A DNA stretch of 63,651 bases from Acidimicrobiales bacterium (GCA_030681555.1 JAUXRW010000038.1:1-63651); one strand, 5' to 3'. Shown: positions 11,861 to 42,407, numbered from the stretch's first letter. The notes: generated from the sequence alone by a model not told the origin. Program-made: numbers and translations.

Positions 11861-12847
11861 ATGGCTGACGACGCCACGCTCGACCCCGCGGTCCACCGCG
11901 GCCTCTACCGGACGATGAGCCTGATCAAGCAGTGCGACGACCGGTTCCGCACCATGCTCTCCAGCGGCCAGATCTTCATCGTGTACTACTCGCCTCGCGG
12001 CCAGGAGGCCATCTCGGCCGGTGTCGGAGCCCACCTCCGCCCGGACGACTCGGTGGTCACCACCTACCGCGGCCTGCACGACCACCTGGCCAAGGGCGTC
12101 GACCTGCGGGGGCTCTGGGCCGAGTTCCTCGGCAAGTCCACCGGTCTGTGCAAGGGCAAGGGCGGCCCCATGCACATCACCTCTCCCTCCGACGGGCTGA
12201 TGGTGACCACCGGGATCGTGGGCGCCGGCCTCCCCATCGCCAACGGTTTCGCCATGGCTGCCCAGCTCGACGGGTCGGACGCCGTCACGGTGGTGAACTT
12301 CGGCGACGGGGCGTCGAACATCGGCGCCTTCCATGAGGCGGTCAACCTGGCCGCGATCTGGAAGCTGCCGGTGGTGTTCGTCTGCCACAACAACCTCTAC
12401 GCGGAGCACACGGCCTTCGAGGCGGGCACCGCAGGCGGGTCGGTCGCCGGACGCGCCAGCGCCTACGGGATCGCCGGTCAGCGGGTGGACGGCAACGACC
12501 CTGTGGAGGTGTACCTGGCTGCTCAGGAGGCGGTCAGGCGCGCCCGTGCCGGCGAGGGGCCCACCATCGTCGAGTGCATGACCTACCGTTTCCACGGCCA
12601 CGTGGTCGGGGACGCGATGGAGTACCAGCCCCCGGACGAACGGGCCGCCGCCATGGCGGCTGACCCGGTCGATCGCTACCGAGCTCGGCTCGTCACCGAC
12701 GCGACCCTCACCGAGGCCGAGCTGGCCGACATCGACTCCACCATTGCGGCCGAGATCGACGACGCCGTGGAGTTCGCGCAGTCCAGCCCTGCCCCGGACC
12801 TGTCCGAGCTGTATACCGATGTCTACGCCGAGGGGGTCGCGCCGTGA
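11861..12847 (+). CDS. TPP-dependent dehydrogenase E1 alpha subunit (AcoA/PdhA-like)
   Basis: GQEA, GKGGPMH, GDGA...HNN TPP motif, TYRFHGH. Confidence 0.92.
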   Translation: MADDATLDPAVHRGLYRTMSLIKQCDDRFRTMLSSGQIFIVYYSPRGQEAISAGVGAHLRPDDSVVTTYRGLHDHLAKGVDLRGLWAEFLGKSTGLCKGKGGPMHITSPSDGLMVTTGIVGAGLPIANGFAMAAQLDGSDAVTVVNFGDGASNIGAFHEAVNLAAIWKLPVVFVCHNNLYAEHTAFEAGTAGGSVAGRASAYGIAGQRVDGNDPVEVYLAAQEAVRRARAGEGPTIVECMTYRFHGHVVGDAMEYQPPDERAAAMAADPVDRYRARLVTDATLTEAELADIDSTIAAEIDDAVEFAQSSPAPDLSELYTDVYAEGVAP

Positions 12848-13839
12848 CCGCCACGGAGACCACCCGAGTCATGATGGTGCGTGAGGCCATCAACGACGCG
12901 CTCGATCGAGCGCTCGCCTCCGACGACAAGGTGGTGCTGCTCGGGGAGGACATCGCAGACCCTGGTGGTGGGGTGTACGGCATCACCAAGGGCCTGTCCA
13001 CGAAGTACGGTCTCGACCGTGTGCGGCCCACGCCGATCTCGGAGCAGGCCATCGTGGGCGCGGCAATCGGCGCTGCCGTAGCCGGGTATCGGCCGGTGGC
13101 GGAGATCATGATCATGGACTTCTTCGGGGTCTGCCTCGATCAGGTGGCGAACCACGCCGCCAAGCTCCGATACATGTCCGGCGGCCAGACCACCGTCCCG
13201 CTCACCATCCGCTGCTCAGCCGGGGCTGCGATGTCCCTGGGCGCCCAGCACTCGCAGATGCTCGAGGCCTGGCTGGTCCACACTCCCGGCCTGAAGGTGT
13301 GCATCCCGAGCAACTCGGCTGACGCCAAGGGGATGCTCACCACCTGCATCTTCGACGACGATCCTTGCGTCTTCGTCGAGCAGGTCATGGGCTACTTCAA
13401 TGGCTCGGAGTGCCCCGAGGGGGAGCACCGAGTGCCGATCGGTGAGGCCGCCATCCGGCGTGAAGGCGACGCCATCACCCTCGTGAGCTACGGCCGCCAG
13501 ATGAACGACGTTCTGACGGCGGCCGATCAGCTCGCAGCTGACGGGATCGACGCGGAGGTCATCGACCTGCGCTGGCTGCAGCCGCTCGACACTGCGACGA
13601 TCCTGGCCTCTGTTCGTAAGACAGGTCGGCTGGCCATCCTGCACGAGGCCGTCAAGCGGGGAGGTGTCGGGGCGGAGATCGCAGCGGTCGTCGCAGAGGA
13701 GGCCTTCGACTCGCTCCGGGCACCCGTGGTGCGCATCGCCGGCAAGAACACCCCCGTCCCCTACGCACGGGAGCTCGAGGCGGCGTTCCTGCCCACGGTG
13801 GGCGATCTCGTGGCTGCAGCCAGGGCCCTGGTGAGCTGA
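12844..13839 (+). CDS. TPP-dependent dehydrogenase E1 beta subunit
   Basis: LGEDI, TPISEQAIVG, EIM..DF, QHSQ, EVIDLR. Confidence 0.93.
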   Translation: MTATETTRVMMVREAINDALDRALASDDKVVLLGEDIADPGGGVYGITKGLSTKYGLDRVRPTPISEQAIVGAAIGAAVAGYRPVAEIMIMDFFGVCLDQVANHAAKLRYMSGGQTTVPLTIRCSAGAAMSLGAQHSQMLEAWLVHTPGLKVCIPSNSADAKGMLTTCIFDDDPCVFVEQVMGYFNGSECPEGEHRVPIGEAAIRREGDAITLVSYGRQMNDVLTAADQLAADGIDAEVIDLRWLQPLDTATILASVRKTGRLAILHEAVKRGGVGAEIAAVVAEEAFDSLRAPVVRIAGKNTPVPYARELEAAFLPTVGDLVAAARALVS

Positions 13840-13841
13840 GG

Positions 13842-14072
13842 GTGAAGATCAACGTGCCCCGCCTGGGGTTCTCGATGACCGAAGGCACCCTCGTCGAGTG
13901 GGTGGTCCCCGACGGCGGGCAAGCCGTCGCTGGGGAGGTGTTGTACATCCTCGAGTCCGAGAAGGTCGAGAACGAGGTCGCGGCGCCCCTCACGGGCACG
14001 CTGCGCCACATCGCGGCGCCTGGCGACACGCTCGACGTCGGCGCGCCACTGGGCGAGATCGAGCCGGCCTGA
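13842..14072 (+). CDS. Stand-alone lipoyl-carrier domain
   Basis: 76 aa; PRLGFSMTEG...LESEKVENEV with the lipoyl Lys; stop codon directly after the domain. Confidence 0.88.
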   Translation: MKINVPRLGFSMTEGTLVEWVVPDGGQAVAGEVLYILESEKVENEVAAPLTGTLRHIAAPGDTLDVGAPLGEIEPA

Positions 14073-14150
14073 CGGTCCGGAGCGCGCGACGCAGTCTCCG
14101 CTCCCCCCGGAGAGCCAGATGGGTGGCGAGCCCGACGGGCCGCCACCCAT

Positions 14151-15011
14151 CTACGCGTCGGGACCCTCCGTGGGCGGACGCTGCCTGCGCTGCCGGACCA
14201 GACCAGAGGGATCGATCGGCAGATCGAAGCGCTCGCGGTTGTGGGAGTGGGCAAGGGAGTGCAGCCCGAACGCGCCCCGCATCGCGGTCCAGAAGCCCTG
14301 CGCCTCGAGGGCCTGGTTCACCGACTCCTTGGCCAGCTTGAGCGCAAACGAGGGCTTGGTCGCGATGCGCTCGGCCAGCACCAGGGCCTCGGTGTCCAGA
14401 TCGTCCCGGGACGGGACGACCCGGTTGACCATGCCGAGCTGCTGCGCCTCGGCGGCCGTGATCGCGTCGCCGGTGAAGAGGAGCTCCTTCGCCTTGCGAG
14501 CACCGAGCTCCCACGGGTGGGCGAAGTACTCGACTCCGTTGACGCCGAGGGCGACGGTGATATCGCTGAAGGTGGCTTCGGCGCTGGCGATGACCAGGTC
14601 GCAGACCCAGATCAACATCAGTGCGCCGGCGATGGAACGGCCGTGCACGGCGGCGATCGTGGGTTTCGGCAGGTTGCGCCAGCGCCAACACATGTTGAGA
14701 TAGACCTCCTCCTCCCAGGCCATGAATCCCTCCGCTCCTGGCCGGTCGAACGATGCCGACGTGCCCACGACGGCGTGGGTCTCGCCCATGGTTTGATCGG
14801 CGAGATCATGCCCGGAGCAGAAGTCGGGCCCGCGCCCGGCGAGGATGACGACCTTCACGGCGTCGTCCTGGGCCGCTCGGTCGAAGGCGGTGTTGAGCTC
14901 GTAGGTCATGCGCCGGCTCTGCGCGTTCCTGCGCTCCGGACGGTCGAGCACGATGCGTGCCACCCCCGGCGCGGGCTCTTCGTAGGCGATGGTTGTGAAC
15001 GTGGTGGACAC
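14151..15011 (-). CDS. Enoyl-CoA hydratase/isomerase (EchA13-like)
   Basis: LDRPERRNAQ, FCSGHDL, PKPTIAAVHG, AGALML..VCDL. Confidence 0.92.
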   Translation of the reverse strand: MSTTFTTIAYEEPAPGVARIVLDRPERRNAQSRRMTYELNTAFDRAAQDDAVKVVILAGRGPDFCSGHDLADQTMGETHAVVGTSASFDRPGAEGFMAWEEEVYLNMCWRWRNLPKPTIAAVHGRSIAGALMLIWVCDLVIASAEATFSDITVALGVNGVEYFAHPWELGARKAKELLFTGDAITAAEAQQLGMVNRVVPSRDDLDTEALVLAERIATKPSFALKLAKESVNQALEAQGFWTAMRGAFGLHSLAHSHNRERFDLPIDPSGLVRQRRQRPPTEGPDA

Positions 15012-15036
15012 GGGTCCTCATCGGGGTGGGAGGCGG

Positions 15037-15066
15037 TTGGACAGTTTCTAACTGATTGACTAGAAT
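15037..15066 (+). promoter_or_regulatory. Putative promoter with operator-like motif in the spacer
   Basis: TTGGAC-18 nt-TAGAAT; spacer contains ACTGATTGAC. Confidence 0.5.
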
Positions 15067-15135
15067 GTCACTTCGCTACGGTGCGCGGACCACAACTTCG
15101 GTGGTCTGCCACGAGACCTTACGACGGGGGCAAGG

Positions 15136-16359
15136 ATGCAGATCGAGGTGTTCCGGGAGGAGGCCGTCCGGTGGCTGAAGACCACCGCGGTACCGCGCGC
15201 CGACATCGCGGGGGACGCTCCGCTCGTGTGGGGGGCCGGCAGCGATTCGGTCGCCGTGTTCGAGAACACCACCGAGGAGGAGGAGCGACTCCAGGCCGAG
15301 CGGATCTCCGACTGGCAGAGCACCAAGTTCGACGCCGGGTACGGCGCCATCGCCTGGCCCACCGAACTCGGCGGCCGAGGGCTGACCCCCGCCCACGAGG
15401 CCGCCTTCCGGGCGGAGGAGGCGAAGTTCGAGACTCCGGGCTTCAACGAGCTGTTCGGCGTGACGATCGGCCTCGTGGCTCCCACCATCGGCATCTTCGG
15501 CACTCCGGAGCAGCAGCAGCGGTTCATCCCGTCGCTCCTGCGCACCGACCTCCTCGCCTGCCAGCTCTTCAGCGAGCCCGGTGCGGGCAGCGACCTGGCG
15601 TCGTTGTCGTGCCGGGCCGAGCGTGACGGCGACGGGTGGCGCATCACCGGGCAGAAGGTATGGACCTCCGGAGCCAGGGTGGCCCACTACGGCGAGGCCA
15701 TCTGTCGCACCGACCCCAGTGCCCCCAAGCACCATGGCATGACCGCCTTCCTCGTGCCCCTCGACGCGCCTGGCGTCGAGGTGCGGCCCATCCGCCAGAT
15801 GACCGGTGGGTCCACCTTCAACGAGGTGTTCCTCGAGGACGTGCTCGTGCCCGACGACCTCCGACTGGGAGCCCCCGGCGACGGGTGGAAGGTCGCGCTC
15901 ACCACGTTGGGCTTCGAGCGAGGGCTCTCCAGCGCGGGTGGTGGCGGGCTCGGCGGGTCCTTCCGACGGCTCCACGCCCTCTCCCGGCAGCTCGACCGCA
16001 CCACCGAGCCCGTGACCCGCCAGCAGCTGGCGAAGCTCTACATCGGCGAGCGGCTCCTCTCGATGCTCGGCCAGCGGGCCCGTGCCGCCATGGAGGCGGG
16101 AGGGCCACCGGGGCCGGAGGGCTCGGTGGGCAAGCTGCTCTGGACGCAGAACATGAGCCGCACGAGCGACCTGGCCTCTACCCTCCTCGGCCCCCGCCTC
16201 GGGGCGGACACCGGCGAGTGGGGCACCTTCGCCTGGGCGGAGCACCTGCTGGGTGCCCCCGGGTACCGGATCGCCGGCGGGAGTGACGAGATCCAGCGCA
16301 ACATCATCGGCGAGCGGGTTCTCGGCCTGCCCCGGGAGCCGAGGCCCGCCGCTCCATGA
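15136..16359 (+). CDS. Acyl-CoA dehydrogenase (FadE-type)
   Basis: CQLFSEPGAGSDLA, GQKVWTS, FNEVF, GGSDEIQRNIIGERVLGLPREP. Confidence 0.94.
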   Translation: MQIEVFREEAVRWLKTTAVPRADIAGDAPLVWGAGSDSVAVFENTTEEEERLQAERISDWQSTKFDAGYGAIAWPTELGGRGLTPAHEAAFRAEEAKFETPGFNELFGVTIGLVAPTIGIFGTPEQQQRFIPSLLRTDLLACQLFSEPGAGSDLASLSCRAERDGDGWRITGQKVWTSGARVAHYGEAICRTDPSAPKHHGMTAFLVPLDAPGVEVRPIRQMTGGSTFNEVFLEDVLVPDDLRLGAPGDGWKVALTTLGFERGLSSAGGGGLGGSFRRLHALSRQLDRTTEPVTRQQLAKLYIGERLLSMLGQRARAAMEAGGPPGPEGSVGKLLWTQNMSRTSDLASTLLGPRLGADTGEWGTFAWAEHLLGAPGYRIAGGSDEIQRNIIGERVLGLPREPRPAAP

Positions 16360-16378
16360 CCGTCACCCGGAGGTTTCC

Positions 16379-17917
16379 ATGTCGATCGTGACCCGCCGAG
16401 GTCGAGCCGACGACGAGCGCGCCGTCGCACTGGCCGACGCCACGCAGGAGCTCACCTGGGACGCCCTCGACCAGGTCCTCAACCGCATCGGCAACGCCCT
16501 GCTGACGGAGCTGAGCCCAGGCGCTGATCGCGTGGCCATCTTCGCGGAGAACGCCCTCGAGACGGTGGCCGCCCACCTCGGTGCCATCGGCGTAGGCGTG
16601 TCGTCCGTCCCCGTCAGCTTCCACCTCACCGAGGACGAGCTGGCCTACATCCTCAAGGACTCCGGGAGCCGGCTGCTGCTGGTCGGCCCCGAGACGGCGC
16701 CCCGCGGCGTGGCCGCAGCGCAGCAGGCTGGTATCACCGTCGTGGGCTGGCGGTGTGAGGGCCAGCCGGGGGTCGAGGACTGGGACGCGTGGCTCGCTCG
16801 CGCCGACGCCTCCGAGCCACCCACGGACGTGCCGCCGCGGCCCTTCCTCCACTACACCTCGGGCACCACGGGTTTGCCGAAGGGCACCGACACACCTCCG
16901 GCGATGTTCGCGGGGGGCGAGACGTTGGAGGAGCACTTCGACAACGTCGCGGCTACGAACCTCTTCACAGGCACCAACCTGATCGTCAGCCCCGTCTACC
17001 ACACGGGCCCCCTCTCCACGCTGCGAGCGCTCGCTGCCGGCACGCGACTGGTGGTGCTGGGCCGGTTCGACCCCGAGGGCGTCCTGCGGGCGATCGATCG
17101 CTACAAGGTGACCTCGACGGTGATGGTGCCCACCCACTTCGCCCGGCTCCTGAGCCTGCCCGAGGACGTGCGGAAGCGTTACGACCTCTCCAGCCTGGCC
17201 GTAGTGGCGCACACGGGGGCCTCGTGCCCCGTAGAGGTCAAGCGCCGGATGATCGACTGGTTCGGGCCCGTGTTGATCGAGGCCTATGGCGCCACCGAGT
17301 CAGGCACGACCAACATGATCACCTCTCCCGAGTGGCTCGAGCACCCGGGGTCGGTCGGTCGCACGCTCCCGCCCTTCGAGGTGGTGGTGGTGAGCGAGGA
17401 GGGGGAGGAGCTCCCGACCGGCGAGGTCGGGGTCCTCTACTTCCGCGACACGACCGGACGGGGCATCCGCTACCACAACGACCCGGAGAAGACGGCCAAG
17501 GCCCACCGCCGACCGGGCGAGTTCACCCTGGGCGACGTGGGCTACGTGGACCCCGACGGCTACGTGTACATCACCGACCGCACGTCCGACATGGTCATCT
17601 CGGGAGGGGTCAACATCTACCCGGCCGAGGCGGAGGCGGTGTTACTCGAGCATCCGGCCGTGGACGACGTGGCCTGCATCGGCGTACCCCACATCGAGAT
17701 GGGCGAGCAGCTGCAGGCCCTCGTCGTGCTGCGGGCCGGCGAGCCGGCCCCCACCGAAGCCGAGCTCATCGACTTCGCCCGAGGTCGGATCGCCCACTAC
17801 AAGTGCCCCCGCTCCGTCGACTTCGTCGAGGACCTGGGCCGCAACGCCATGGGCAAGCTGAACAAGCGCGCCCTGCGCGCCCCCTACTGGCCCAGCGACC
17901 GGACGATCGGCGGCTGA
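16379..17917 (+). CDS. Acyl-CoA synthetase (AMP-binding)
   Basis: YTSGTTGLPKG, YGATE, GDVGYVD, SGGVNIYP, GKL. Confidence 0.94.
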   Translation: MSIVTRRGRADDERAVALADATQELTWDALDQVLNRIGNALLTELSPGADRVAIFAENALETVAAHLGAIGVGVSSVPVSFHLTEDELAYILKDSGSRLLLVGPETAPRGVAAAQQAGITVVGWRCEGQPGVEDWDAWLARADASEPPTDVPPRPFLHYTSGTTGLPKGTDTPPAMFAGGETLEEHFDNVAATNLFTGTNLIVSPVYHTGPLSTLRALAAGTRLVVLGRFDPEGVLRAIDRYKVTSTVMVPTHFARLLSLPEDVRKRYDLSSLAVVAHTGASCPVEVKRRMIDWFGPVLIEAYGATESGTTNMITSPEWLEHPGSVGRTLPPFEVVVVSEEGEELPTGEVGVLYFRDTTGRGIRYHNDPEKTAKAHRRPGEFTLGDVGYVDPDGYVYITDRTSDMVISGGVNIYPAEAEAVLLEHPAVDDVACIGVPHIEMGEQLQALVVLRAGEPAPTEAELIDFARGRIAHYKCPRSVDFVEDLGRNAMGKLNKRALRAPYWPSDRTIGG

Positions 17918-17922: not shown

Positions 17923-19233
17923 ATGGATCGATGGCGTGGCGCGCTCTCGAGGTTCCGCGTGTCCGCGCGGACCCTCCTGCTCGCGGCCACGACGGCCTTC
18001 GGCGTGGCCGCTGCGGTCGCGATCCTGCGCGTGACCGAGGTGTCCGAACCCCGGCTCACCCTGCCCGTGGAGCGGCCCGCTCGAACCCGGCCAACGGCGA
18101 TGCGGCAGACCACGGTCACCACCGGGCAGGGCGCCCCCACCACCCAGCTCTCCGACACCACTGCGTCGTCGCCGCCGGGTGGTGGAACGACCATCTCGGC
18201 CGGCCTCGCCTACCGCTGGTCACCGATCGCAGGGGTGGACGAATTCAGCGCGCCAGACGCGGGAGGCGGGCTGACCGCAGTCGCCGCCGTCGAGGGCGAG
18301 GGTCTGATCGCGGTAGGCGGCTCGCGCGACGCCCCGCTGGTCCTCGTGTCACCCGACGGGCTCGGTTGGTCCCGGGTCGATGCCGCGGAGGAGGATCTCC
18401 AGGGTGCCGCCCTGCGGGACGTCGCCGTGGTCGACGGTCGCCTCGTGGCCGTCGGATCACTGCGGGGCGCCCCCGCCGCCTGGACGTCGCTCGACGCCGT
18501 GCAGTGGAGCCGGGTGCCCGTGACCGACCCGGCCAACGAGCTGGGCGTCGGCCTGCTCGAGGCCCTGGCCCAGTCGCCTGACGGGTCGGTGTTCGCCGTG
18601 GGGTTCAGTCCCGGCAGCGCCGGCATCTGGGCCCTTCACGACGGTCGATTCGAGCCAGAGTCGTCCGCGAGGACACCGAGCGTCGGCCAGGTGCTCTCCG
18701 ATGTCGTCTCCACCTCGAAGGGTGTCGTCGCGGCCGGGAACGATGCTGAAGGCCAGCCCATCGCCCTCCGGTCGACGGGTGAGGGCACCTGGTCCACTGC
18801 GGTGCTCCCCGCCGAAGGTGGCCGTGCCTCGGTCGCCGCGCTGGGAGAGATCGGCGACGTCGTGGTCGCCGTGGGCTACGGCGTCCCGGGCCCGCTGGTT
18901 TGGTCGTCGGCAGACGCGCAGAGCTGGTCGGCCGTGACCGCCCCGACGACGTCCCCCGGCCGCCCCGCCGGGCTCTACGCGGTGGCACCGGGACCGGGTG
19001 GCGCGCTGGCCGGCGGTCAACGTCCCGGGGGACCGCTGTGCTCGTCCTCGACCGATGGAACGTCATGGTCCGAATGCGACGGCGAGGACGGGCTGCGGAC
19101 GGCGGCCGTGAGAGATCTTCTCGCCGTAGGCGCGGGTTTCGTCGCCGTCGGTACCTCGACGCCAGAGGACGGCCAGGCAGGTCCGGCCATATGGCACGTC
19201 GAACGTGAACCACGAGCAGCGCAGGCGCGCTGA
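17923..19233 (+). CDS. Exported beta-propeller-like protein with Asp-box-like repeats
   Basis: N-terminal hydrophobic helix, Thr/Pro linker, about 7 repeats of the form VAVG...WxSxDGxxW. Confidence 0.7.
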   Translation: MDRWRGALSRFRVSARTLLLAATTAFGVAAAVAILRVTEVSEPRLTLPVERPARTRPTAMRQTTVTTGQGAPTTQLSDTTASSPPGGGTTISAGLAYRWSPIAGVDEFSAPDAGGGLTAVAAVEGEGLIAVGGSRDAPLVLVSPDGLGWSRVDAAEEDLQGAALRDVAVVDGRLVAVGSLRGAPAAWTSLDAVQWSRVPVTDPANELGVGLLEALAQSPDGSVFAVGFSPGSAGIWALHDGRFEPESSARTPSVGQVLSDVVSTSKGVVAAGNDAEGQPIALRSTGEGTWSTAVLPAEGGRASVAALGEIGDVVVAVGYGVPGPLVWSSADAQSWSAVTAPTTSPGRPAGLYAVAPGPGGALAGGQRPGGPLCSSSTDGTSWSECDGEDGLRTAAVRDLLAVGAGFVAVGTSTPEDGQAGPAIWHVEREPRAAQAR

Positions 19234-19248
19234 AGGGGGAAGCAGAGA

Positions 19249-21057
19249 ATGGTCAACCCGGTCCTACGTCGATACACGCCGGTCATCATCTTCTTGGTGG
19301 CGCAGCTCCTCATCGTCGCGATGGTGCCTGTCGACGACGACGAGCTGTCCGCCAGCTCCAGCGTTACTTCCGGCTCGGGGCTCGTAGCTCAGCCCGGCGA
19401 CTCGGTCGTCGGTTCGGACGGCCAGCCGCTGTCGAGCGACGACGCGAGCCTCGTCGCCGGTACGAACGGCGAGGCTGCGCCCAGCGGCTCCGGCGGTGCG
19501 CAGGCGCTGCCCAGCGGGGCAGGGATCAAGCCGGCGCCTGGCGTCCAGGGCCTGGTGTCGGGTCTGAACGCTGCTGAAGAGGGCGTGTGGCCCTGGACGA
19601 ACCCTTGGCTCCTCGAGGGCGACCGGAGCAAGTGCGGCCCCGGCGGGCAGCTCCAGGACGAGGTGCTGGTGTTCTCGATCCCCTGCGTGCCTGCCTACAC
19701 GGGCGACAACGGCGGTGCGACCTACTCCGGCGTCACGGAGGACGAGATCCGGCTCGTGATGATCGTCCCCAAGGCCAACCCCGCCATCGTCGCCGCGCTG
19801 TCAGGCGTCGGCCTGTGGGCCACCCCTGAGCAGTGGGACGCCGGGGGCAAGGCCTTCGCCAAGTTCTTCAACGAGCACTACAACTTCTACGGCCGCCGCA
19901 TCAAGGCCTACACCCACCTGGCCGAGTGCGAGGGCGGCCCCTTCGGCGGCGGCGGCGGCTCCACCGACCTGGCCTGCTGGCGAGAGCAGGCCAGGATCAT
20001 CCAGGCCAAGTACAAGCCCTTCGTGACCTTCTTCACCTCCCCCCATCCTGCCGAGGTGTTCGACGAGCTGAGCCGGCTCAAGATCCTGAACGTGGGCGGC
20101 TGGCTGTACGACGCCGGCTTCAGCAAGGACCGGGCGCCCTACCACTGGGACCTGTTCACCGACGGCTCCCGCACGGCGGCCAACGTTGCCAACTACTGGT
20201 GCAACCGCATGGTCGGGCAGAAGGCGTCCCGAGCCGGCGACCCGGGCCTTAAGGACAAGGTCCGCAAGCTCGCCATCGTCACCCCGGAGTACCCCTTCTA
20301 CGTGTCGGCGGCGAAGTTCCTGGCCGAGCAGGTCTCGGGCGGCCAGTGCGGCGCCGGGGGCGACGTGCCGAAGGTCTACCAGTACTCCCAGTCGGACCTG
20401 GCCAAGGCGCAGGAGCAGATGACGCTCATCGCCACGCAGATCAAACAGGACCAGGCCACCACCGTCACCTGCCTCTGCGACCTTCTCGCTCCGGTGTACC
20501 TAACCAGCGAGCTCGACAACCAGCAGTGGTTCCCCGAGCACCTCCTGGCCCTGCAGGAGGGTGCCGACCACGACTACCCGGCCCGGCTCTACAGCCCCCG
20601 CCAGTGGGACAACGCCTTCGGACCCAGCCCCCGGCCGATGGAGATCCCCAAAGAGCAGCAGGACGACTACGTGATGTGGAAGATGGCCGGCAACACGTCC
20701 GAGCCTCCCTACGTGCTCACGGTCGTACAGATGTACTACCACCTCATCGCAGCGATGCTGCAGTGGGCCGGCCCCAACCTCACGCCCGAAACCGTGCAGC
20801 GGGGCGCCTTCAGCCTCTCCCAGCTCGGCGGGTTCGGGGGCGAGGCGCCCTGGCCCGGCTGGCAGGGCAACGATCCCCGGGTGCAGCTGTGGACCTTCGG
20901 CCCTGACGACTACACGGCCAACGACGACACCAAGGAGGTGTACTTCTCGTCCTCGGCGCGATCCCGCATCGACGACCAGCCCGGGACCTACATCTGCGCC
21001 AGGGACTGCGCTCGCACGCCCATTGCGGGCTGGTCGAAGGGCGCGCCGCTCCAGTGA
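19249..21057 (+). CDS. LIV/HAAT-type ABC substrate-binding protein (atypical, membrane-anchored)
   Basis: 602 aa; N-terminal TM without lipobox; GDNGGATYSGVTEDEIR, YGRRI; precedes the fused transporter. Confidence 0.8.
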   Translation: MVNPVLRRYTPVIIFLVAQLLIVAMVPVDDDELSASSSVTSGSGLVAQPGDSVVGSDGQPLSSDDASLVAGTNGEAAPSGSGGAQALPSGAGIKPAPGVQGLVSGLNAAEEGVWPWTNPWLLEGDRSKCGPGGQLQDEVLVFSIPCVPAYTGDNGGATYSGVTEDEIRLVMIVPKANPAIVAALSGVGLWATPEQWDAGGKAFAKFFNEHYNFYGRRIKAYTHLAECEGGPFGGGGGSTDLACWREQARIIQAKYKPFVTFFTSPHPAEVFDELSRLKILNVGGWLYDAGFSKDRAPYHWDLFTDGSRTAANVANYWCNRMVGQKASRAGDPGLKDKVRKLAIVTPEYPFYVSAAKFLAEQVSGGQCGAGGDVPKVYQYSQSDLAKAQEQMTLIATQIKQDQATTVTCLCDLLAPVYLTSELDNQQWFPEHLLALQEGADHDYPARLYSPRQWDNAFGPSPRPMEIPKEQQDDYVMWKMAGNTSEPPYVLTVVQMYYHLIAAMLQWAGPNLTPETVQRGAFSLSQLGGFGGEAPWPGWQGNDPRVQLWTFGPDDYTANDDTKEVYFSSSARSRIDDQPGTYICARDCARTPIAGWSKGAPLQ

Positions 21058-27993: not shown

Positions 27994-28060
27994 CACGACG
28001 CCGCAGGCGGCGTGGTGGATGGACGTGGATCCAGCTGAATGGGAGAGGGAGAGCAACCTG

Positions 28061-30202: not shown

Positions 30203-31108
30203 GTGGGGTCGCATCGCGGACCGGCCGAGCTCACGGTGCACGGCGTCACGGTGCGGTTCCGGGGCCTGGTGGCCAACTCCGAGGTCGACCTCGAGGTGCC
30301 GGCGGGTTCGATCTCGGCCTTGATCGGGCCCAACGGTGCCGGCAAGACGACACTGTTCAACGTCATCAGTGGCCTGGTGGCACCATCGACGGGCCGCCTT
30401 GCGCTCGACGATACGGATATCACGTCGCTCTCCACGGTCCGGAGGGCCGAACTCGGAGTTGCTCGAACCTTTCAGAGCTTGCAGCTCGCGCCGACCCTCA
30501 CTGCCCTCGACAATGTGCTCGTCGGAGTGGCTCGGCTGGGCCGATTCGGTCGGCTCGTGAACCTGGGCCGACGCGATGCGCTGAGCTCGGCCGGGCTGCG
30601 ACGGATCTCCGCCCGCGCGCTCGAGTTCGTAGGCCTCGGCCACCGGGCCGACGACCGGGTGGAGCAGCTTCCCTTCGGCGACCGTCGTCGCGTAGAGCTC
30701 GCTCGCGCCCTGGCCGGAGCGCCCAGGTTGCTTCTGCTCGACGAGCCGGCATCGGGCTTGCCTCAGGAGGAGACGGTCGAGCTGATCGACATCCTGCGCC
30801 GTGCACGTGACGAGCTGGACCTCACCCTGCTCGTGGTCGAGCACGACATGTCGTTTGTGCGGGCACTGGCGGAGCGGGCGGTGGTGCTGGACTTCGGTTC
30901 GGTGCTGGCCTCGGGCATGACCGAGGAAGTTCTCGCCGACGAGCAGGTTGTGACCGCCTTCCTCGGAACCGGGGCCGCAGGCCAGGCCGGCGCTGCGAAC
31001 GGGGCTGTTCCGCACCTCGACGACACGGTCGAGCTACGGCCAGGTCGTCGGAAGCCCCTCGTGGCGGCGGCACCCGGTCCCGAGACCAACAGTAAGGCAG
31101 CGCGATGA
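30203..31108 (+). CDS. LivG-like ABC ATPase
   Basis: GPNGAGKT, LPFGDRR, DEPASG, EHDM. Confidence 0.93.
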   Translation: MGSHRGPAELTVHGVTVRFRGLVANSEVDLEVPAGSISALIGPNGAGKTTLFNVISGLVAPSTGRLALDDTDITSLSTVRRAELGVARTFQSLQLAPTLTALDNVLVGVARLGRFGRLVNLGRRDALSSAGLRRISARALEFVGLGHRADDRVEQLPFGDRRRVELARALAGAPRLLLLDEPASGLPQEETVELIDILRRARDELDLTLLVVEHDMSFVRALAERAVVLDFGSVLASGMTEEVLADEQVVTAFLGTGAAGQAGAANGAVPHLDDTVELRPGRRKPLVAAAPGPETNSKAAR

Positions 31109-36646: not shown

Positions 36647-38614
36647 ATGGCCGAGCGCTACAGCCTGCTCCGAGCGCCGATCACGATCGGCGACTGCACG
36701 ATCCCCAATCGCATCGTCCGCACCGCCCACGCCACCGGCTTCGCCTTCGGCCTGGTCAGCGACCGCCTGATCGCCTATCACGAGGCTCGTGCCCGAGGCG
36801 GGGTGGGGCTCAACTTCCTGGAGATCGCCTCCGTGCACCAGACCTCGCCCGGGTCACTGATGGCCTGGGACGACATGGTGATCGAGGGTCTCACGACGAT
36901 CACCGACCGGATCCATGCCCACGGCTCCAAGGTGTTCCAGCAGCTGTGGCACGGCGGGGCCAACGCCAAGCCCTTCGACGGCACGCCCAGCTGGGCGCCC
37001 TCGGAGGTGCCCGAACCCACGTACAACACGATGCCCCAGGCGATGACCAAGGCGATGATCGACGAGGTGGTCGACGGGTTCGGGTCGGCCGCCAAGCGAT
37101 GCCAGACGGCGGGCATGGATGGGGTGGAGATCCACGGTGCCCACGGCTACCTGGTGGGCCAGTTCCTCAGCCCCAAGACGAACCTGCGGACCGACGACTA
37201 CGGCGGATCCCTCGACAACCGGGTGCGCTTCGCGGCCGAGGCGCTCGCGTCCATACGAGCCGCGGTAGGCCCTGGCTTCCCGGTCGGGATCCGCCTCTCG
37301 GGCACGGAGGGGATCCCCGACGGCATCCAGCCCCATGAGGCAGCAGCCACCGCCGCGATGCTCGAGGCCCAGGGCCTCGTCGACTTCGTCAACGTCTCGA
37401 TGGGCAGCTACTACGCGTTCTCGAAGTTCATCGGGGCGATGCACGAGCCGCTCGGCTACGAGCTGCCGACCAGTCGGGTCGTAACAGCCGCCGTCCGGGT
37501 TCCGCGGATCGTCACGGGGCGGATCATGGATCTCCACGACGCCGAACGGGTGATCGCGGACGGGATCGCTGATCTGGTGTCGATGGTGCGCGCCACCATC
37601 GCCGACCCCGAGATCGTGGCCAAGAGCTTCGCCGGCGAGGCCGACCGCGTCCGCCCCTGCCTCAGCTGCAACCAGGGGTGCGTCGGCGGCATCTTCGGGC
37701 CCGCCGCTTCCCTCGGTTGCGTGGTGAACCCGGACGCGGGGCACGAGCACCTCGGCATCGACCCCTACCCGGCGGCGCCGAAGACACGCAACGTGGTCGT
37801 GGTGGGCGGGGGACCAGCCGGCCTGGAAGCGGCCAGCACCGCAGCTCGCCGAGGTCACTCCGTGGTGCTGTGCGATGCGGCCGACGAGCTCGGGGGCCAG
37901 CTCCGCTGGGCCCGACGGGCGCCTCATCGCCAGGACATTGCCGCTTCCACGGACTGGCTCGTGGAGGAGTGCCGGCGACTCGGCGTCACGCTGCACACCG
38001 GGACGCTGGTAGACCTCGCGTACCTCGAGGGTCTCGAAGTCGATGCCGTGATCCTGGCCACCGGCGCCGAGCTCCGTCGCGACGGGGTCCAGGCGCAGCG
38101 CCCTGACGCCGAGGTGCCTGGCGTCAGCCTCCCCCACGTGGCCACCACCATCGACGTCCTCGGTGGGTGGACCAAGCCGGCCGAGCGGGCCGTCGTCTTC
38201 GATGATCGTGGGGACATCGGGGCGGTGTCGGTCACTGAGCACCTCCTGGCACAGGGGATGGAGGTGGTCCTGGTGACGAGCCGTGCGGAGATCGCGGCGG
38301 AGCTGGGCCCGTCACTGCAACGCGAGCCCGCCCAGCAGCGGCTCCGGTCGCACCCGCGGTTCCAGGAGCGGGTCGCGCAGGCGCTCGTGTCGGTGAGCGA
38401 CTCGAGCGTGACCATCGAGGGCCTCGACGACGCCAGGTCGGAGATACTTCCCGCAGACCTCGTGGTGCTCGACACGGGCGCTGAGCCGCGCCGCGACCTC
38501 CTCGCCGAGCTCGAGGCGGCTGGCTACGAGGTGCATCTCGCCGGCGACGCGCTGGCGGCCGAGGATCTGCAGCACGCGATGGCCAGCGCTCGGGAGGTGG
38601 CGAGGTCGGTTTGA
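36647..38614 (+). CDS. Old-yellow-enzyme Fe-S flavoprotein (2,4-dienoyl-CoA reductase / BaiCD-like family)
   Basis: GVEIHGAHGYL, NLRTDDYGGSL.NR, CLSCNQGC, VVGGGPAGLEAA. Confidence 0.92.
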   Translation: MAERYSLLRAPITIGDCTIPNRIVRTAHATGFAFGLVSDRLIAYHEARARGGVGLNFLEIASVHQTSPGSLMAWDDMVIEGLTTITDRIHAHGSKVFQQLWHGGANAKPFDGTPSWAPSEVPEPTYNTMPQAMTKAMIDEVVDGFGSAAKRCQTAGMDGVEIHGAHGYLVGQFLSPKTNLRTDDYGGSLDNRVRFAAEALASIRAAVGPGFPVGIRLSGTEGIPDGIQPHEAAATAAMLEAQGLVDFVNVSMGSYYAFSKFIGAMHEPLGYELPTSRVVTAAVRVPRIVTGRIMDLHDAERVIADGIADLVSMVRATIADPEIVAKSFAGEADRVRPCLSCNQGCVGGIFGPAASLGCVVNPDAGHEHLGIDPYPAAPKTRNVVVVGGGPAGLEAASTAARRGHSVVLCDAADELGGQLRWARRAPHRQDIAASTDWLVEECRRLGVTLHTGTLVDLAYLEGLEVDAVILATGAELRRDGVQAQRPDAEVPGVSLPHVATTIDVLGGWTKPAERAVVFDDRGDIGAVSVTEHLLAQGMEVVLVTSRAEIAAELGPSLQREPAQQRLRSHPRFQERVAQALVSVSDSSVTIEGLDDARSEILPADLVVLDTGAEPRRDLLAELEAAGYEVHLAGDALAAEDLQHAMASAREVARSV

Positions 38615-38651: not shown

Positions 38652-39332
38652 TCACGGTGCCGACGCCGCAGCGGCACGCTGGTCGACCAGCGTGCCGGCG
38701 AAGAGGCGTTCGACCACGAGCACCGCAGCAGTGTGCTCCTCAAGGCCCTCATCGAGGGTGGCGAAGTGGGCCAGCCCCGTCGTGATGGACAGGAGCATGT
38801 TGGCGACGGCCCCTGGCGACACGTCCGGCTGCAGCTCGCCGGCGTCGGCGGCGTCCTGGGCCAGCTGGTGGAAGAAGCCAAGACCGCGGCCCCACAGCTC
38901 GGCAGGGACCCGATCGGCGAGGTCCTTGTGCCTGAGCAGCTCGACCGGGTACACCGTGCTGAACCGAGCCAGGGAGGCGTCTTCTCGATGCAGCTCGATC
39001 GCGATGTCGAGCAGCCCGCGAACCCGGTCGACGAAGCTCGACGATTCCTCGAGCACACGGTCGAACTCGCTGAAGATCCGGGTCACCACCTGCTCGGTGA
39101 CCGCCCCGAACAGCTCGTCCTTGGAGTCGAAGTAGTGGTAGATCGCGCCGGCCGTCAACCCGGCCCGCTCGCCGATGTCGCGGTTGGTGGTGCTGGCGTA
39201 TCCGAGCTCGGCGAAGCAGCTGCGGGCGGCTCCGAGGATGCGCTCCCGGGTCTCGGCGCTCTCGGCGGCGGGCGGCCTCCCGAGAGGTCGGGCGGTCTTC
39301 CGTCGGCTTGGTCGGCTGCTCGTTGGGCCCAT
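38652..39332 (-). CDS. TetR/AcrR-family regulator
   Basis: TRERILGAARSCFAELGY...GLTAGAIYHYFDSK; likely start MGPTSS at 39332. Confidence 0.92.
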   Translation of the reverse strand: MGPTSSRPSRRKTARPLGRPPAAESAETRERILGAARSCFAELGYASTTNRDIGERAGLTAGAIYHYFDSKDELFGAVTEQVVTRIFSEFDRVLEESSSFVDRVRGLLDIAIELHREDASLARFSTVYPVELLRHKDLADRVPAELWGRGLGFFHQLAQDAADAGELQPDVSPGAVANMLLSITTGLAHFATLDEGLEEHTAAVLVVERLFAGTLVDQRAAAASAP

Positions 39333-39361
39333 GGAGACGGCTCCTGTACGTGAATCGCGGG

Positions 39362-39408
39362 TTGACCGGGCGCTCGCTGCAATCCTATGATATCTAATCA
39401 ACAGATTA
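39362..39408 (+). promoter_or_regulatory. Promoter and palindromic operator in the tetR/Rieske divergent region
   Basis: TTGACC-18 nt-TATGAT followed by the perfect palindrome TAATC-AACA-GATTA (39395-39408). Confidence 0.65.
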
Positions 39409-39470
39409 AATAGCCCATTGCCGGGCGCCAGAAACAATAGGCGTGAGCGAAGGTCCCAGGAGGAACGGTA

Positions 39471-40871
39471 GTGGACATGAATTCAGCTGGGCCTGCTGGT
39501 GCGGTGCGATCCCCGGGGGCGACGGTGCAGCAACTCCTCGACCGGGACAGCCATGAGGTCCCGGTGACACTCCGCGTCCACGCAGCAGCGGATCTCGGCG
39601 ATGCCGACCTGTCCGTGGACCGGTATTTGTCCCGGGAGTTCCACGACCTCGAGGTCGAGCGGCTGTGGGGCCGGGCTTGGCAGCTCGCTTGCCGCGAGGA
39701 GGACATCCCGGAGGTCGGCGACACGACGATCTACGACATCGCCGACCGGTCGCTTCTCATCGTGCGAGAGGCCCCGGAGCGCATCCGGGCGTACCACAAC
39801 GCGTGCCTCCACCGTGGCCGCCAACTGCGGTCCGAGCCCGGGTGGAACGCCGAGCTCCGGTGTCCCTTCCACGGTTTCACGTGGCGCCTCGATGGGAGCC
39901 TCAAGGAGATCCCGTGCGACTGGGACTTCCCCCACGTCGACCCGGCAGCGTTCGCGCTCCCGGAGGCGCTGGTGGCGACCTGGGGCGGCTGGGTGTTCAT
40001 CAACATGGACCCCGCCGCCGCCCCGTTCGAGGACTTCATGGGAACCTTCGCCGAGCACTTCCCGTGGCGCCAGGAGGACCTCACCAAGGGGGTTCACGTG
40101 GCCAAGGTGCTCCGCGCCAATTGGAAGGTTGCGCTCGAGGCCTTCATCGAGTCGTACCACGTGATCGCCACGCACCCCCAGCTCCTGGTGAGCCTCGGCG
40201 ACGCCAACACCCAGTACGACGTCTTCGACGAGCAGCCGCGGTGGAACCGGATGATCACCGCGATGGGCACACCGTCGCCTCACCTGCCCTACGAGGTTTC
40301 CGAGCAGGACATCATGGACGACCTCATGGAGCAGTTCATGGGGCCCGGCGTCACGTTTCCACTAGCTGAAGGCAAGACAGCGCGCGAGATGATGGGCGAC
40401 CTGATCCGGGGGCAGGTCGGTGGCGTGACCGGTGAGCCCTGTGAGGTCTCCGACTCGGAGGCCTTCGACGCCATCGAGTACTACCTGTTCCCGAACTTCG
40501 TCCCATGGGGGGGCTACTCGCGGATCAACTACCGGTTCCGGCCCTATGGCAACGATCCCGACATGTGCATCATGGACGTGATGCTGCTCGCCCCCTTCAA
40601 CAAGGCGGAAGGCCGGCCACCGGCGCCGCCCGTGCACTGGCTCGGACCCGACGACGAGTGGACCGACGCGCCGGAGCTGGGCCTCCTGGCCAAAGTGTTC
40701 GTGCAGGACACCTTCAACATCCCTCGCGTCCAGCGGGGCCTGAAGGCGACCGTGAAGCCCGGTGTCACGCTGGCGCACTACCAGGAGAGCCGGATCCGCC
40801 ACTATCACCAGGAGCTGGATCGCTGGCTCCAGGTGGAACTCGCCCCGAGCACGAACGGCCACTCAGGGTGA
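39471..40871 (+). CDS. Rieske non-heme iron oxygenase alpha subunit
   Basis: CLHRG...CPFHG Rieske cluster, NWK..EAFIESYH...H, distal Asp in VQD. Confidence 0.94.
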   Translation: MDMNSAGPAGAVRSPGATVQQLLDRDSHEVPVTLRVHAAADLGDADLSVDRYLSREFHDLEVERLWGRAWQLACREEDIPEVGDTTIYDIADRSLLIVREAPERIRAYHNACLHRGRQLRSEPGWNAELRCPFHGFTWRLDGSLKEIPCDWDFPHVDPAAFALPEALVATWGGWVFINMDPAAAPFEDFMGTFAEHFPWRQEDLTKGVHVAKVLRANWKVALEAFIESYHVIATHPQLLVSLGDANTQYDVFDEQPRWNRMITAMGTPSPHLPYEVSEQDIMDDLMEQFMGPGVTFPLAEGKTAREMMGDLIRGQVGGVTGEPCEVSDSEAFDAIEYYLFPNFVPWGGYSRINYRFRPYGNDPDMCIMDVMLLAPFNKAEGRPPAPPVHWLGPDDEWTDAPELGLLAKVFVQDTFNIPRVQRGLKATVKPGVTLAHYQESRIRHYHQELDRWLQVELAPSTNGHSG

Positions 40872-40879
40872 AGCACGCC

Positions 40880-41053: not shown

Positions 41054-41116
41054 TTACGGTCCGGACATCGCCCAAACTGTCATATCGCTAGGCCACCCAA
41101 GGAGGACATCGTTCCA

Positions 41117-41503
41117 ATGAGTCACGAGTTCATGTCAGACGACTGGTTCAACGCCGTCGAGGCGCTCGCCGCAGAGGCACCCGAACCGCCCGCCGCCCTC
41201 AAGGACCTCACCGTCAACGTCGTCGTCAGCGGGGGGCCCGAGGGGGAGAAGGAGGCGCATCTGGCTGCAGGCCTCTTCAACCGTGGGCTCTCCGATGCCG
41301 CGTCCACGAAGCTGACAGTTCCCTTCGACACCGCGAAGGCCATGTTGATCGAGGGCAACCCCCAGGCCGCCATGCAGGCGTTCATGTCCGGACAGATCAA
41401 GGTGGAGGGAGACATGACCAAGCTCATGGCCATGCAGACCGCCGGTGCGCCGACGCCGGAGCAGGCCGCCTTCCAGGAAAAGCTCAAGGCGCTCACGGCG
41501 TAA
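41117..41503 (+). CDS. SCP2 sterol/lipid-binding domain protein
   Basis: 128 aa; FMSDDW start and AFMSGQIKVEGDM C-terminal SCP2 motif; AAGGAGG RBS. Confidence 0.85.
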   Translation: MSHEFMSDDWFNAVEALAAEAPEPPAALKDLTVNVVVSGGPEGEKEAHLAAGLFNRGLSDAASTKLTVPFDTAKAMLIEGNPQAAMQAFMSGQIKVEGDMTKLMAMQTAGAPTPEQAAFQEKLKALTA

Positions 41504-41560
41504 GAAGCGCGGAGGCTTCGCCGGAAGGTGCCGGTGTGGTTCCCGTAAACGGCATCTGAC

Positions 41561-41596
41561 GCCCCGGTCGGGCCGAGTTTAGGGCCCGACCGGGGC
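41561..41596 (+). terminator. GC-rich hairpin, probable terminator
   Basis: 14-bp perfect stem GCCCCGGTCGGGCC / GGCCCGACCGGGGC with an 8-nt loop after the SCP2 gene. Confidence 0.7.
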
Positions 41597-41627
41597 GGCA
41601 GTCACTGCGCCCCCAAGCAGGCAGGAG

Positions 41628-42407
41628 TTGGCAACGTTGACCCGTGTGAGCGAACCCGCCTCAAGCGAGGGCCCGCCGGCGGCATCAGGATCCTCCCGCA
41701 CCAGGGCGATCCGTCATAGCCTCATTCGGCGCCGAACGGCCGAGCACTTGCGGCGTTCGGTCGACACGTCCGCACACGTCTACTCGTCGATCGAGGTCGA
41801 CTTCGAGGCGGTCGACGCGGTGCGTCGGGTGCGGGCAGCGGACTGGAAGCAGCGGGAGGGCTTCGGGCTGTCGTACCTTCCCTTCACCGCGCGGGCGGCC
41901 GCACAAGCTATCGCGACCTTTCCGGAGGTGAACGGTACGTTCACCGCCGATGCCTTGCTGGTTCACGCCGACGTGCACCTGGGCATTGCGGTCGACCTCG
42001 ACTTCAAGGGCCTCATGGTCCCAGTGGTGCGGGATGTCACGTCCAAGAAGGTGCCCGCGATCGCACGCGAGGTGCACGAGCTCGCGAGGCGTGCTCGAGC
42101 CAAGGAGCTGGCGCGCGAGGACGTCGTCGATGGCACGTTCACCATCACGAACCCGGGGCCCTACGGCACTCTGCTCACGATGCCGATCATCAACCAGCCA
42201 CAGGTGGCCATCCTCGCCACCGACGGGGTGCGACGCCGACCCGTCGCCGTGACGGGCGCCGACGGGTCCGAGGACATCGTCGTACACCCCGTGGGAAACA
42301 TCGTGCTCACCTGGGACCATCGCGCCTTCGACGGGGCCTACGCGGCCGCGTTCCTCAACGAGATCAAAGAACGCCTCGAGACCTCTGACTGGGACTCGGA
42401 GTTCTGA
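41628..42407 (+). CDS. Stand-alone 2-oxoacid dehydrogenase E2 acyltransferase catalytic domain
   Basis: 259 aa; IRRRTAEHL, GTFTITNPG, MPIINQPQ, DHRAFDG; no lipoyl or E3-binding domain. Confidence 0.9.
   Translation: MATLTRVSEPASSEGPPAASGSSRTRAIRHSLIRRRTAEHLRRSVDTSAHVYSSIEVDFEAVDAVRRVRAADWKQREGFGLSYLPFTARAAAQAIATFPEVNGTFTADALLVHADVHLGIAVDLDFKGLMVPVVRDVTSKKVPAIAREVHELARRARAKELAREDVVDGTFTITNPGPYGTLLTMPIINQPQVAILATDGVRRRPVAVTGADGSEDIVVHPVGNIVLTWDHRAFDGAYAAAFLNEIKERLETSDWDSEF

Follow-up and report, generated by a model that had tools for sequence, protein, structure and literature searches.

A free-standing lipoyl domain and a separate lipoyl-less E2 core in an Acidimicrobiales catabolic cluster: a putative untethered 2-oxoacid or acyloin dehydrogenase

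In textbook 2-oxoacid dehydrogenases, the lipoyl arms are tethered to an E2 scaffold, and this tethering is held to explain both the size of the complexes and their substrate channelling. Here we describe a 63,651-nucleotide stretch of DNA from an Acidimicrobiales bacterium (henceforth termed the window), which is contig C3 of a 3.28-Mb, high-GC metagenome-assembled genome (MAG) that is 98% complete. In the window, the two genes of an E1 component are followed by a free-standing lipoyl domain (LD), and a distant gene encodes an E2 catalytic core with neither an LD nor a peripheral subunit-binding domain (PSBD). Judging from the sequences, these parts probably constitute a naturally untethered, or split, 2-oxoacid or acyloin dehydrogenase consisting of E1, a free LD and a separate LD-less core. 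If so, tethering would be dispensable, given a diffusible 76-aa arm and a core without arm and docking domain, and the layout would have been rebuilt at least four times by truncation of housekeeping E2 copies. The four genes at issue are as follows.

11861-12847, plus strand: E1alpha, the thiamine diphosphate (TPP)-binding subunit (PF00676, E 2e-78)
12844-13839, plus strand: E1beta (Transket_pyr + Transketolase_C)
13842-14072, plus strand: free-standing LD, 76 aa (PF00364, positions 2-73 of 73, E 4e-15)
41628-42407, plus strand: E2 catalytic core without LD or PSBD (PF00198 only, E 2e-63)

The gene map was guided by the GC content at third codon positions (GC3) together with Pfam and NCBIfam scans. 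Since coding GC3 lies between 0.80 and 0.91 across the open reading frames (ORFs) and homologues of the same length are conserved, these frames are not chance occurrences.

Conservation of a free-standing lipoyl domain

The earlier note on this DNA, made from the sequence alone, described E1alpha and E1beta genes followed by a 76-aa LD that stops cleanly, and Pfam matches and ORF reading over 11861-14072 bear this out. The E1alpha translation contains GDGASNIGAFHEAVNLAAIWKLPVVFVCHNN and YRFHGH, so that both the GDG...NN motif, which serves TPP binding, and the E1alpha histidine motif, which serves reductive acylation, are intact. Its nearest NCBIfam model is the 'y'-type pyruvate dehydrogenase (PDH) E1alpha, for which it remains under the equivalog cut-off, as it does for TIGR03182 and TIGR03181; E1beta scores 350.9 bits against NF006667 (cut-off 321). 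The LD gene begins with GTG, 2 nt past the TGA stop of E1beta and in a different frame, and ends in a clean TGA of its own. Its predicted lipoyl-lysine is K41, within the motif ESEKVEN.

A word-indexed search returned 61 LD homologues, almost all of 76-78 aa, at 50-91% identity. In the 28 homologues that were aligned, K41 and the surrounding E[ST][DE]KVEN are invariant, and the stop codon is kept in more than 60 homologues. Counting one genome per GTDB species, we confirmed 159 LD loci, which belong mostly to Acidimicrobiia and include cultured Saccharopolyspora, Streptomyces and Sphingobium. In a comparison with the orthologue on a metagenome contig (L012), which is 92% identical, the ratio of nonsynonymous to synonymous substitution rates (dN/dS) is 0.17. 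The stand-alone protein suggested by the earlier note is therefore recognizable as a family of ~76-aa proteins with an invariant lysine, and the sequence data support a conserved, selected, stand-alone carrier rather than a broken E2. The best NCBIfam match is the LD of AcoC (NF011457, E 1.5e-15), at 57 bits against a cut-off of 307. A role as biotin carrier was considered and rejected on these best family matches and on the E-S-E-K-V-E-N motif, biotin carriers having EAMKM instead.

The position of the LD relative to E1 varies among genomes, and for this reason we regard it as an independent gene and not as a fragment. It lies directly after E1beta in the window, L012, L014 and G028; after E1beta with an opposite-strand DUF305 gene in between in L001, L002 and many other loci; ahead of E1beta in L052; and beside a fused E1 in L042, L053, L054, L090 and L111. 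The arrangement with a DUF305 gene wedged between E1beta and LD on the opposite strand (L001:9280-10002, L002:9302-9961) is the commonest cluster type. We analyzed 80 of the 159 loci by tblastn with the window's proteins, 47 of these loci being at least 15 kb long, and scored what lies within the fetched flanks.

E1 (split or fused): 56/80 loci; 34/47 loci of at least 15 kb
Rieske oxygenase: 49/80 loci; 41/47 loci of at least 15 kb
E3: 0/80 loci; 0/47 loci of at least 15 kb
E2 core: 6/80 loci; 5/47 loci of at least 15 kb

The usual neighbours of the LD are thus E1 and a Rieske oxygenase, and the clusters that contain them are catabolic, of a lipid or terpenoid type. The Rieske gene is no more than 10 kb from the LD in 41/47 long loci, and in 13/47 tblastn found no E1 within 10 kb.

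The genome has E1 genes to spare. Besides the split pair, the window holds a fused E1alpha-beta (55496-57772, minus strand; a 758-aa ORF with E1_dh, Transket_pyr and Transketolase_C). The second, fused E1 that the earlier note placed at 55496-57457 is real, but it is encoded on the minus strand by an ORF that extends to 57772, and 57457 fits a plausible internal start, near which the protein likely begins. Neither LD nor E2 stands beside it; genes for a short-chain dehydrogenase/reductase (SDR), a zinc-dependent alcohol dehydrogenase, an acyl-CoA dehydrogenase and a TetR regulator are divergently transcribed. Alpha/beta-type E1 genes occur at four sites in the genome: the split and fused E1 on C3, a further fused E1 on C147 and, where C44 begins, a fragment. 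A KGD/OdhA-type fusion is additional, so that the genome has more E1 genes than it has E2 genes or LDs. Three biotin/lipoyl domains were found, namely the single LD of the housekeeping E2, the free LD and a biotin carrier, and likewise three PF00198 domains, those of a canonical 461-aa E2 (C115), the orphan core and the KGD/OdhA-type fusion (C7). One carrier serving more than one E1 fits the five loci in other genomes in which the LD adjoins a fused E1.

As the earlier note had stated, the window contains no E3. The TIGR01350 search gave only a 35-residue FAD-motif match (37790-37897) inside a flavin reductase described below, and the 80 LD loci were equally devoid of E3. The housekeeping E3, Lpd, lies at C115:16798-18204 (488 bits, cut-off 409). 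The same contig holds the housekeeping E2, with LD, PSBD and core on one polypeptide, and a single ORF containing LipB and LipA; with E3 and the lipoylation genes all on C115, E3 is a shared, housekeeping enzyme and not a dedicated one. The LipB and LipA domains occupy one 577-aa frame (C115:13671-15404, minus strand) directly downstream of the housekeeping E2, which looks like a LipB-LipA fusion, and an Acidimicrobiia contig has a 434-aa gene call with LplA-B_cat, LIAS_N and Radical_SAM domains (L004:11349-12653). A second Lpd-like gene at C123:44278-45636 scores 368 bits, under the TIGR01350 cut-off, has an in-frame TAG and adjoins biotin carboxylase and BirA-like genes.

Origin and recurrence of lipoyl-less cores

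The lipoyl-less E2 domain that the earlier note had located at 41628-42407, with an intact DHRxxDG (here DHRAFDG), is likewise present. Pfam gives no Biotin_lipoyl (PF00364) or E3_binding (PF02817) match in this ORF. Translation likely starts at TTG 41637 or GTG 41646, and an AGGAG at 41623-41627 stands 9 nt before the in-frame TTG; a database gene call for the core (P0212) is 253 aa long. The catalytic motifs WDHRAFDG and FTITNPG are intact, the former aligning with DHRLIDG of solved E2p, and GC3 is 0.84. The N-terminus retains a short Ala/Pro/Ser linker-like remnant. Only 124 nt, which contain a hairpin, separate the core from an upstream gene for an SCP2-like lipid-binding protein, and tblastn found no LD or PSBD remnant upstream of the core.

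With one exception, the core has its closest relatives among the full-length housekeeping E2s of Acidimicrobiales, at 68-71% identity. The exception is a 253-aa orthologue (P0213, 77-82% identical) on a 3.6-kb contig (L005). There, the core is again preceded by an SCP2 gene (95% identity over the 40 residues covered), a P450 gene lies downstream, and no insertion sequence (IS) element is present. Between the two cores dN is 0.14 and dS 1.12; the resulting omega of 0.12 against an orthologue of the same length indicates that the core is maintained by purifying selection. Phylogenetic trees place the two cores within the clade formed by the housekeeping E2 proteins of the family to which the window belongs; their stem branch is long, at 0.48-0.55 substitutions per site compared with ~0.1 for housekeeping branches. 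Together with 66% identity to the housekeeping E2 of its own genome, this placement and long stem identify the core as a truncated duplicate of the housekeeping E2. By sequence it is a SucB/DlaT-type paralogue that would have lost LD and PSBD, changed fast and then stabilised.

The best solved-structure matches of the core are the actinobacterial trimeric E2p cores 6zzi and 9y6t, and such matches at the sequence level are decisive for its fold. Against the 553-residue E2p chain 9y7v_D, which we take to be M. tuberculosis DlaT, it aligns without gaps through the C-terminal three-residue insertion, with W-D-S opposite F-E-A. The aromatic insertion of E2p, placed before the C-terminal 3-10 helix, blocks higher-order assembly of that protein (10.1101/2020.07.24.212647).

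This ancestry does not agree with the view, taken in the earlier note, that a single E2 was disassembled into LD and core: the core is a housekeeping-E2 paralogue, and the LD has its best family match in an AcoC-type LD and is only 42% identical to the LD of the housekeeping E2. The recent breakage of a contiguous E2, which that note named among the findings that would overturn its proposal, was considered and rejected; LD and core differ in ancestry, the vicinity of the core contains no remnant of an LD or PSBD, and the LD is conserved as a free gene of variable position. A more general version of this concern is that an IS-mediated rearrangement left the core behind as the decaying remains of a housekeeping E2 duplicate, so that the split is an accident or an artefact of assembly or gene calling. 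An IS4/IS5-family transposase 160 nt downstream of the core, the linker-like remnant at its N-terminus and the many lipoyl-less E2 database entries that are long-read frameshift artefacts would all suit this explanation. It is nevertheless largely refuted and, in our estimate, scarcely credible: the same-length orthologue, under an omega of 0.12, keeps the SCP2 neighbour without any IS, the motifs are intact behind an AGGAG ribosome-binding site with a GC3 of 0.84, the gene that adjoins the IS is another one, for a DAO-type oxidoreductase, and the LD keeps its stop codon in more than 60 homologues.

Lipoyl-less cores as separate genes beside LD genes, as seen in the window, recur in several lineages. 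Three other lineages have core-only E2 genes no more than ~5 kb from an LD gene, and in two of the three E1 stands beside them as well; the open frames of these cores, 246-298 aa (in G046, 315 aa with an ORF of ~256 aa), are too short to include an LD. In Actinophytocola, Saccharopolyspora and Streptomyces (L050, L052, L075), a compact operon has the order LD-E1beta-Rieske-core-E1alpha, with the LD at 9989-10219 and the core at 13111-13884 of L052. Three Ilumatobacteraceae MAGs (L055, L072, L081) have a core-only E2 near the LD, and in G046 (L017) the core is 5 kb from the E1alpha-E1beta-LD genes and the rest of the cluster mirrors the gene set of the window. According to the tree, core-only genes must have arisen independently at least four times (a single origin was recovered in 0/200 bootstrap trees), and all four origins fall in LD-bearing genomes. 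The Ilumatobacteraceae cores, like that of the window, each nest within the housekeeping E2 clade of their own family. The cores of L050, L052 and L075 group with Acidimicrobiia E2 and not with the E2 paralogues of their own genomes, a placement that suggests horizontal transfer of the Saccharopolyspora-type operon between classes. To us, a split layout that recurs in this way looks like a working design, not a broken gene.

Only clear cases entered these counts. Many database entries of the lipoyl-less type are housekeeping genes split by long-read frameshifts and were not counted. The idea that lipoyl-less E2 is common in Acidimicrobiales, raised by many 241-332-aa matches, was dropped after the two that were checked (P0220, P0321) were judged to be artefacts: both are housekeeping Lpd-E2-LipB loci whose E2 is broken up into an LD part and a core part, and in their assemblies many other gene calls are fragmented too. 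Short PF00198 frames in G008, G016 and G019 (at contig starts) and G170:C179 (at a contig end) were left out as ambiguous, and those in G133 and G152 as likely frameshifted housekeeping genes.

At the level of genomes, a stand-alone core occurs in 6/42 LD-bearing genomes and in 0/42 LD-lacking Acidimicrobiales (Fisher p = 0.026). The co-occurrence of E1alpha-E1beta-LD with core-only E2, which the earlier note proposed as a check, is seen to this extent; the dedicated core is nonetheless the exception, and the housekeeping E2 is a serious alternative partner of the LD. Several observations weigh against a dedicated pairing of LD and core. The six genomes represent only two origins, so that the co-occurrence counts are not phylogenetically independent, and we accordingly give the four origins more weight than the genome counts. 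About 36 of the 42 LD-bearing genomes have only the housekeeping E2 and a KGD-type core; these include G028 and G056, which are 98-99% complete and the closest LD relatives at genome level (LDs 67% and 55% identical). With a dedicated core absent from most LD-bearing genomes, the module does not require the orphan core. In the window itself, the core is IS-flanked and 27.5 kb from the LD, so that their present linkage could be incidental, and an LD-less core could exchange acyl groups with something other than a lipoyl carrier.

These points are the strength of an alternative in which the E1alpha-E1beta-LD module is real, its acyltransferase and E3 are the housekeeping enzymes, and the orphan core is an unrelated, neofunctionalised CAT-fold acyltransferase of a Rieske/SCP2 sub-cluster, whose substrate might be a CoA thioester or a hydroxyl acceptor and which might have no contact with the LD at all. 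The location of the core beside SCP2 and Rieske genes and its long stem, taken as a sign of changed function, would agree with this, as would the many LD-bearing genomes with nothing beyond the housekeeping E2 and the KGD-type core. We consider it unlikely, if the foremost of the alternatives, given that LD-less cores were recruited four times independently, always in LD-bearing genomes and in three cases within ~5 kb of the LD; that LD, E1 and core stand together in a single operon; that none of the 42 LD-lacking genomes has a stand-alone core; and that the core keeps the His/Asp/Thr motifs for lipoyl-dependent transfer.

Putative reaction sequence and catabolic setting

Gene anatomy, conservation, selection, repeated co-localisation and independent origins are seen in the sequences themselves; for the untethered dehydrogenase we infer from them that the carrier is lipoylated and shuttles acyl groups, which proteins are its partners, and what kind of substrate is used. 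A heterotetramer-type E1alpha-beta would decarboxylate or cleave its substrate, a 2-oxo acid or an acyloin, on TPP, and would then reductively acylate the lipoyl-K41 of the soluble 76-aa LD, which the housekeeping LipB-LipA would have lipoylated. The acyl-dihydrolipoyl LD would diffuse to an E2 core without LD or PSBD, which would pass the acyl group to CoA, and the housekeeping Lpd would re-oxidise the carrier. In this genome the dedicated core would be the product of the orphan gene at 41628-42407; in most relatives that role probably falls to the core of the housekeeping E2.

The housekeeping E2 was probably also the ancestral partner of the free LD. The most economical history is one in which LD and E1 first used the housekeeping E2 core and E3 in trans, and truncated E2 copies were later recruited repeatedly; such duplicates could shed their own LD and PSBD because the LD was already supplied separately.

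The split E1 and the LD belong to a plus-strand operon that runs from a P450 through ferredoxin, ChsH2/DUF35-type protein, Ltp-type thiolase and SDR to E1alpha, E1beta and LD. The further features of the cluster, assigned by Pfam, are listed here.

7909-9228, plus strand: P450
9238-9465, plus strand: 4Fe-4S ferredoxin
9462-9908, plus strand: ChsH2/DUF35-type OB protein
9859-11049, plus strand: Ltp-type thiolase
10958-11827, plus strand: SDR
14151-15011, minus strand: enoyl-CoA hydratase, a beta-oxidation-type neighbour
15136-16359, plus strand: acyl-CoA dehydrogenase, a beta-oxidation-type neighbour
16253-17917, plus strand: acyl-CoA ligase, a beta-oxidation-type neighbour
27980-29482, plus strand: KstD-like FAD dehydrogenase (FAD_binding_2), member of the recurring gene set
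36647-38614, plus strand: OYE/FadH-type Fe-S flavoenzyme (Oxidored_FMN + Pyr_redox_2), not an E3
38652-39437, minus strand: TetR regulator
39471-40871, plus strand: Rieske oxygenase alpha subunit
41117-41503, plus strand: SCP2-like lipid-binding protein (PF02036), directly upstream of the core
42570-43463, plus strand: IS4/IS5-family transposase (DUF4096 + DDE_Tnp_1), downstream of the core
43469-44071, minus strand: DAO-type (DAO/ThiO-like) oxidoreductase, truncated to an N-terminal part of ~200 aa, abutting the IS

On L012 the upstream genes (7909 to 11827) occur in identical order at 87-98% identity, and the beta-oxidation-type genes from 14151 to 17917 are syntenic with LD loci of other genomes. 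Downstream of the acyl-CoA ligase follow large ABC transporter genes and an ABC1 kinase, then the KstD-like flavoenzyme and the OYE/FadH-type reductase; the KstD-like gene adjoins the E1alpha-E1beta-LD module in G028 (L018) and L014, at 70-75% identity. The setting of the split system is a lipid or terpenoid-type catabolic regulon, and the cluster marks an uncharacterised, widespread catabolic pathway in freshwater, soil and groundwater Acidimicrobiia. Sequencing runs containing the locus are all DNA runs, from groundwater and soil metagenomes only, the complete locus being found in a single groundwater run. The E1, Rieske, KstD-like and thiolase proteins all missed their NCBIfam equivalog cut-offs. 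The gene order P450-ferredoxin...SDR-E1alpha-E1beta-LD would fit a 2-oxo or acyloin intermediate formed by hydroxylation followed by SDR oxidation.

Several genes nearby are unusual in their own right. A single ORF of 1355 aa (21054-25121) fuses two branched-chain-type permease and two ABC ATPase domains, as does its counterpart in L013. Pfam matched none of several large conserved ORFs (436, 602, 362 and 510 aa) in 17923-21057, 25118-26206 and 31105-32637; L012 carries counterparts of the 602-aa ORF and of a portion of the 436-aa one at 82-90% identity. The DAO/ThiO-like gene is apparently interrupted by the adjoining transposase. A P-type ATPase at 4340-6525 is apparently spread over two overlapping minus-strand ORFs (5437-6525 and 4340-5602), indicating a frameshift or a pseudogene, and adjoins an intact HMA-type P-type ATPase at 370-2646.

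Free lipoate-binding proteins have non-classical redox roles in sulfur oxidation (PMC6067878). The LD could by analogy be mainly a redox carrier that is reduced by E1 and whose electrons go not to E3 but to the Rieske oxygenase or a different acceptor; the acyl group would be released or passed on by some other route. A Rieske gene lies within 10 kb in 41/47 long loci, E3 in none; there is scarcely space for a reductase in the compact LD-E1beta-Rieske-core-E1alpha stretch, which includes one unassigned 136-aa ORF; and tblastn, with no Pfam scan of that locus, found no homologue of the window's ferredoxin in Saccharopolyspora-type loci. We nonetheless think this role highly improbable: a dithiol carrier that reduces a Rieske centre would, to our knowledge, be unprecedented, the presence of an E2 core in the minimal operon implies acyl transfer, a ferredoxin gene adjoins the P450 in the window, and the housekeeping E3 is available. 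A broader and equally speculative scheme, to which we assign little probability, makes the LD a soluble hub that would carry acyl groups from several orphan E1s to LD-less trimeric cores, its dihydrolipoyl form also giving electrons to the Rieske oxygenase instead of E3. This would couple oxidative decarboxylation or acyloin cleavage directly to hydroxylation in one pathway, and it would account for the constant absence of E3 from the cluster, for the near-constant presence of a Rieske oxygenase in it, and for the failure to find a homologue of the ferredoxin in the Saccharopolyspora-type operon. For the untethered dehydrogenase that we favour, the five-gene operon of cultured Saccharopolyspora and Streptomyces would offer an experimentally tractable case for measuring what tethering buys.

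Comparison with known systems

By its parts, the system would work like a 2-oxoacid or acetoin dehydrogenase. It shares with the canonical complexes the TPP motifs of E1, a PF00364 LD whose invariant K41 would occupy the tip of a DK-type turn, the catalytic residues of E2 and a shared E3. It departs from them in architecture: in place of an E2 with LD, PSBD and core on one chain, there are a 76-aa LD ORF and a core that matches PF00198 only. The absence of a PSBD from both argues against stable assembly of E1 and E3 on an E2 scaffold. As neither would then be able to dock E1 or E3 canonically, the system should behave like the glycine cleavage system, where the small lipoylated H protein (GcvH) moves freely between distinct catalytic proteins and the shared housekeeping dihydrolipoamide dehydrogenase re-oxidises it. 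The LD is not itself a member of the GcvH family, its only Pfam match being PF00364 and its NCBIfam matches being to E2/AcoC-type LD or biotinyl domains, without GcvH; moreover, its proposed partners are an E1 and a CAT-fold E2 core instead of P and T proteins. It may, by analogy, work like the H protein.

Acetoin dehydrogenase (AcoA/AcoB/AcoC/AcoL) resembles the system in its split E1, which belongs to the PDH-'y'/Aco-like branch, and in the LD, which is best matched by that of AcoC. G011 and G054 have canonical clusters of E1beta, AcoX-like protein and full E2 in the same order, with LDs 45-48% identical. However, the window's cluster contains no AcoC-type E2, AcoX or AcoL, the equivalog cut-offs of the Aco subunits are not reached, and the context is lipid or terpenoid-type catabolism with P450, Rieske oxygenase, acyl-CoA dehydrogenase, enoyl-CoA hydratase and CoA ligase.

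An LD tied to E1beta instead of E2 is also found in the NF008854-type E1beta of alpha-proteobacterial PDH, which carries an N-terminal LD, and the window LD matches positions 4-68 of this 464-residue model. In that type LD and E1beta share one covalent chain, and there is also an ordinary E2 that bears its own LD; here the LD is a separate protein whose position relative to E1 varies between genomes. LbpA offers another parallel, as a free-standing lipoate-binding protein of sHdr sulfur oxidation outside the classical complexes (PMC6067878). It is GcvH-like and tied to Hdr-like genes, without E1 or E2 partners. A full-text literature search returned no description of a free-standing LD with an LD-less E2, an absence that is no proof of novelty.

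The closest precedent is the actinobacterial hybrid of PDH with 2-oxoglutarate dehydrogenase (ODH), formed in Corynebacterium and Mycobacterium by OdhA/Kgd and AceF/DlaT, in which an LD-less core is likewise served in trans. OdhA/Kgd depends on the lipoyl domains of E2p (bioRxiv 10.1101/2020.07.24.212647; PMC10415282), whose core is only a trimer and not a 24- or 60-mer (10.1101/2020.07.24.212647; PMC10415282; PMC7568260). The genome studied here has a KGD-type fusion of its own on C7, and the E2p cores of this hybrid system are the best PDB matches of the orphan core. In the hybrid, the LD is fused to PSBD and core (AceF) and the LD-less core to E1o, and the enzyme serves central metabolism; in the peripheral catabolic cluster of the window, the 76-aa arm and the ~253-aa core are both free. 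If our reading is right, the actinobacterial pattern of lipoyl domains acting in trans has here been carried to its logical end point.

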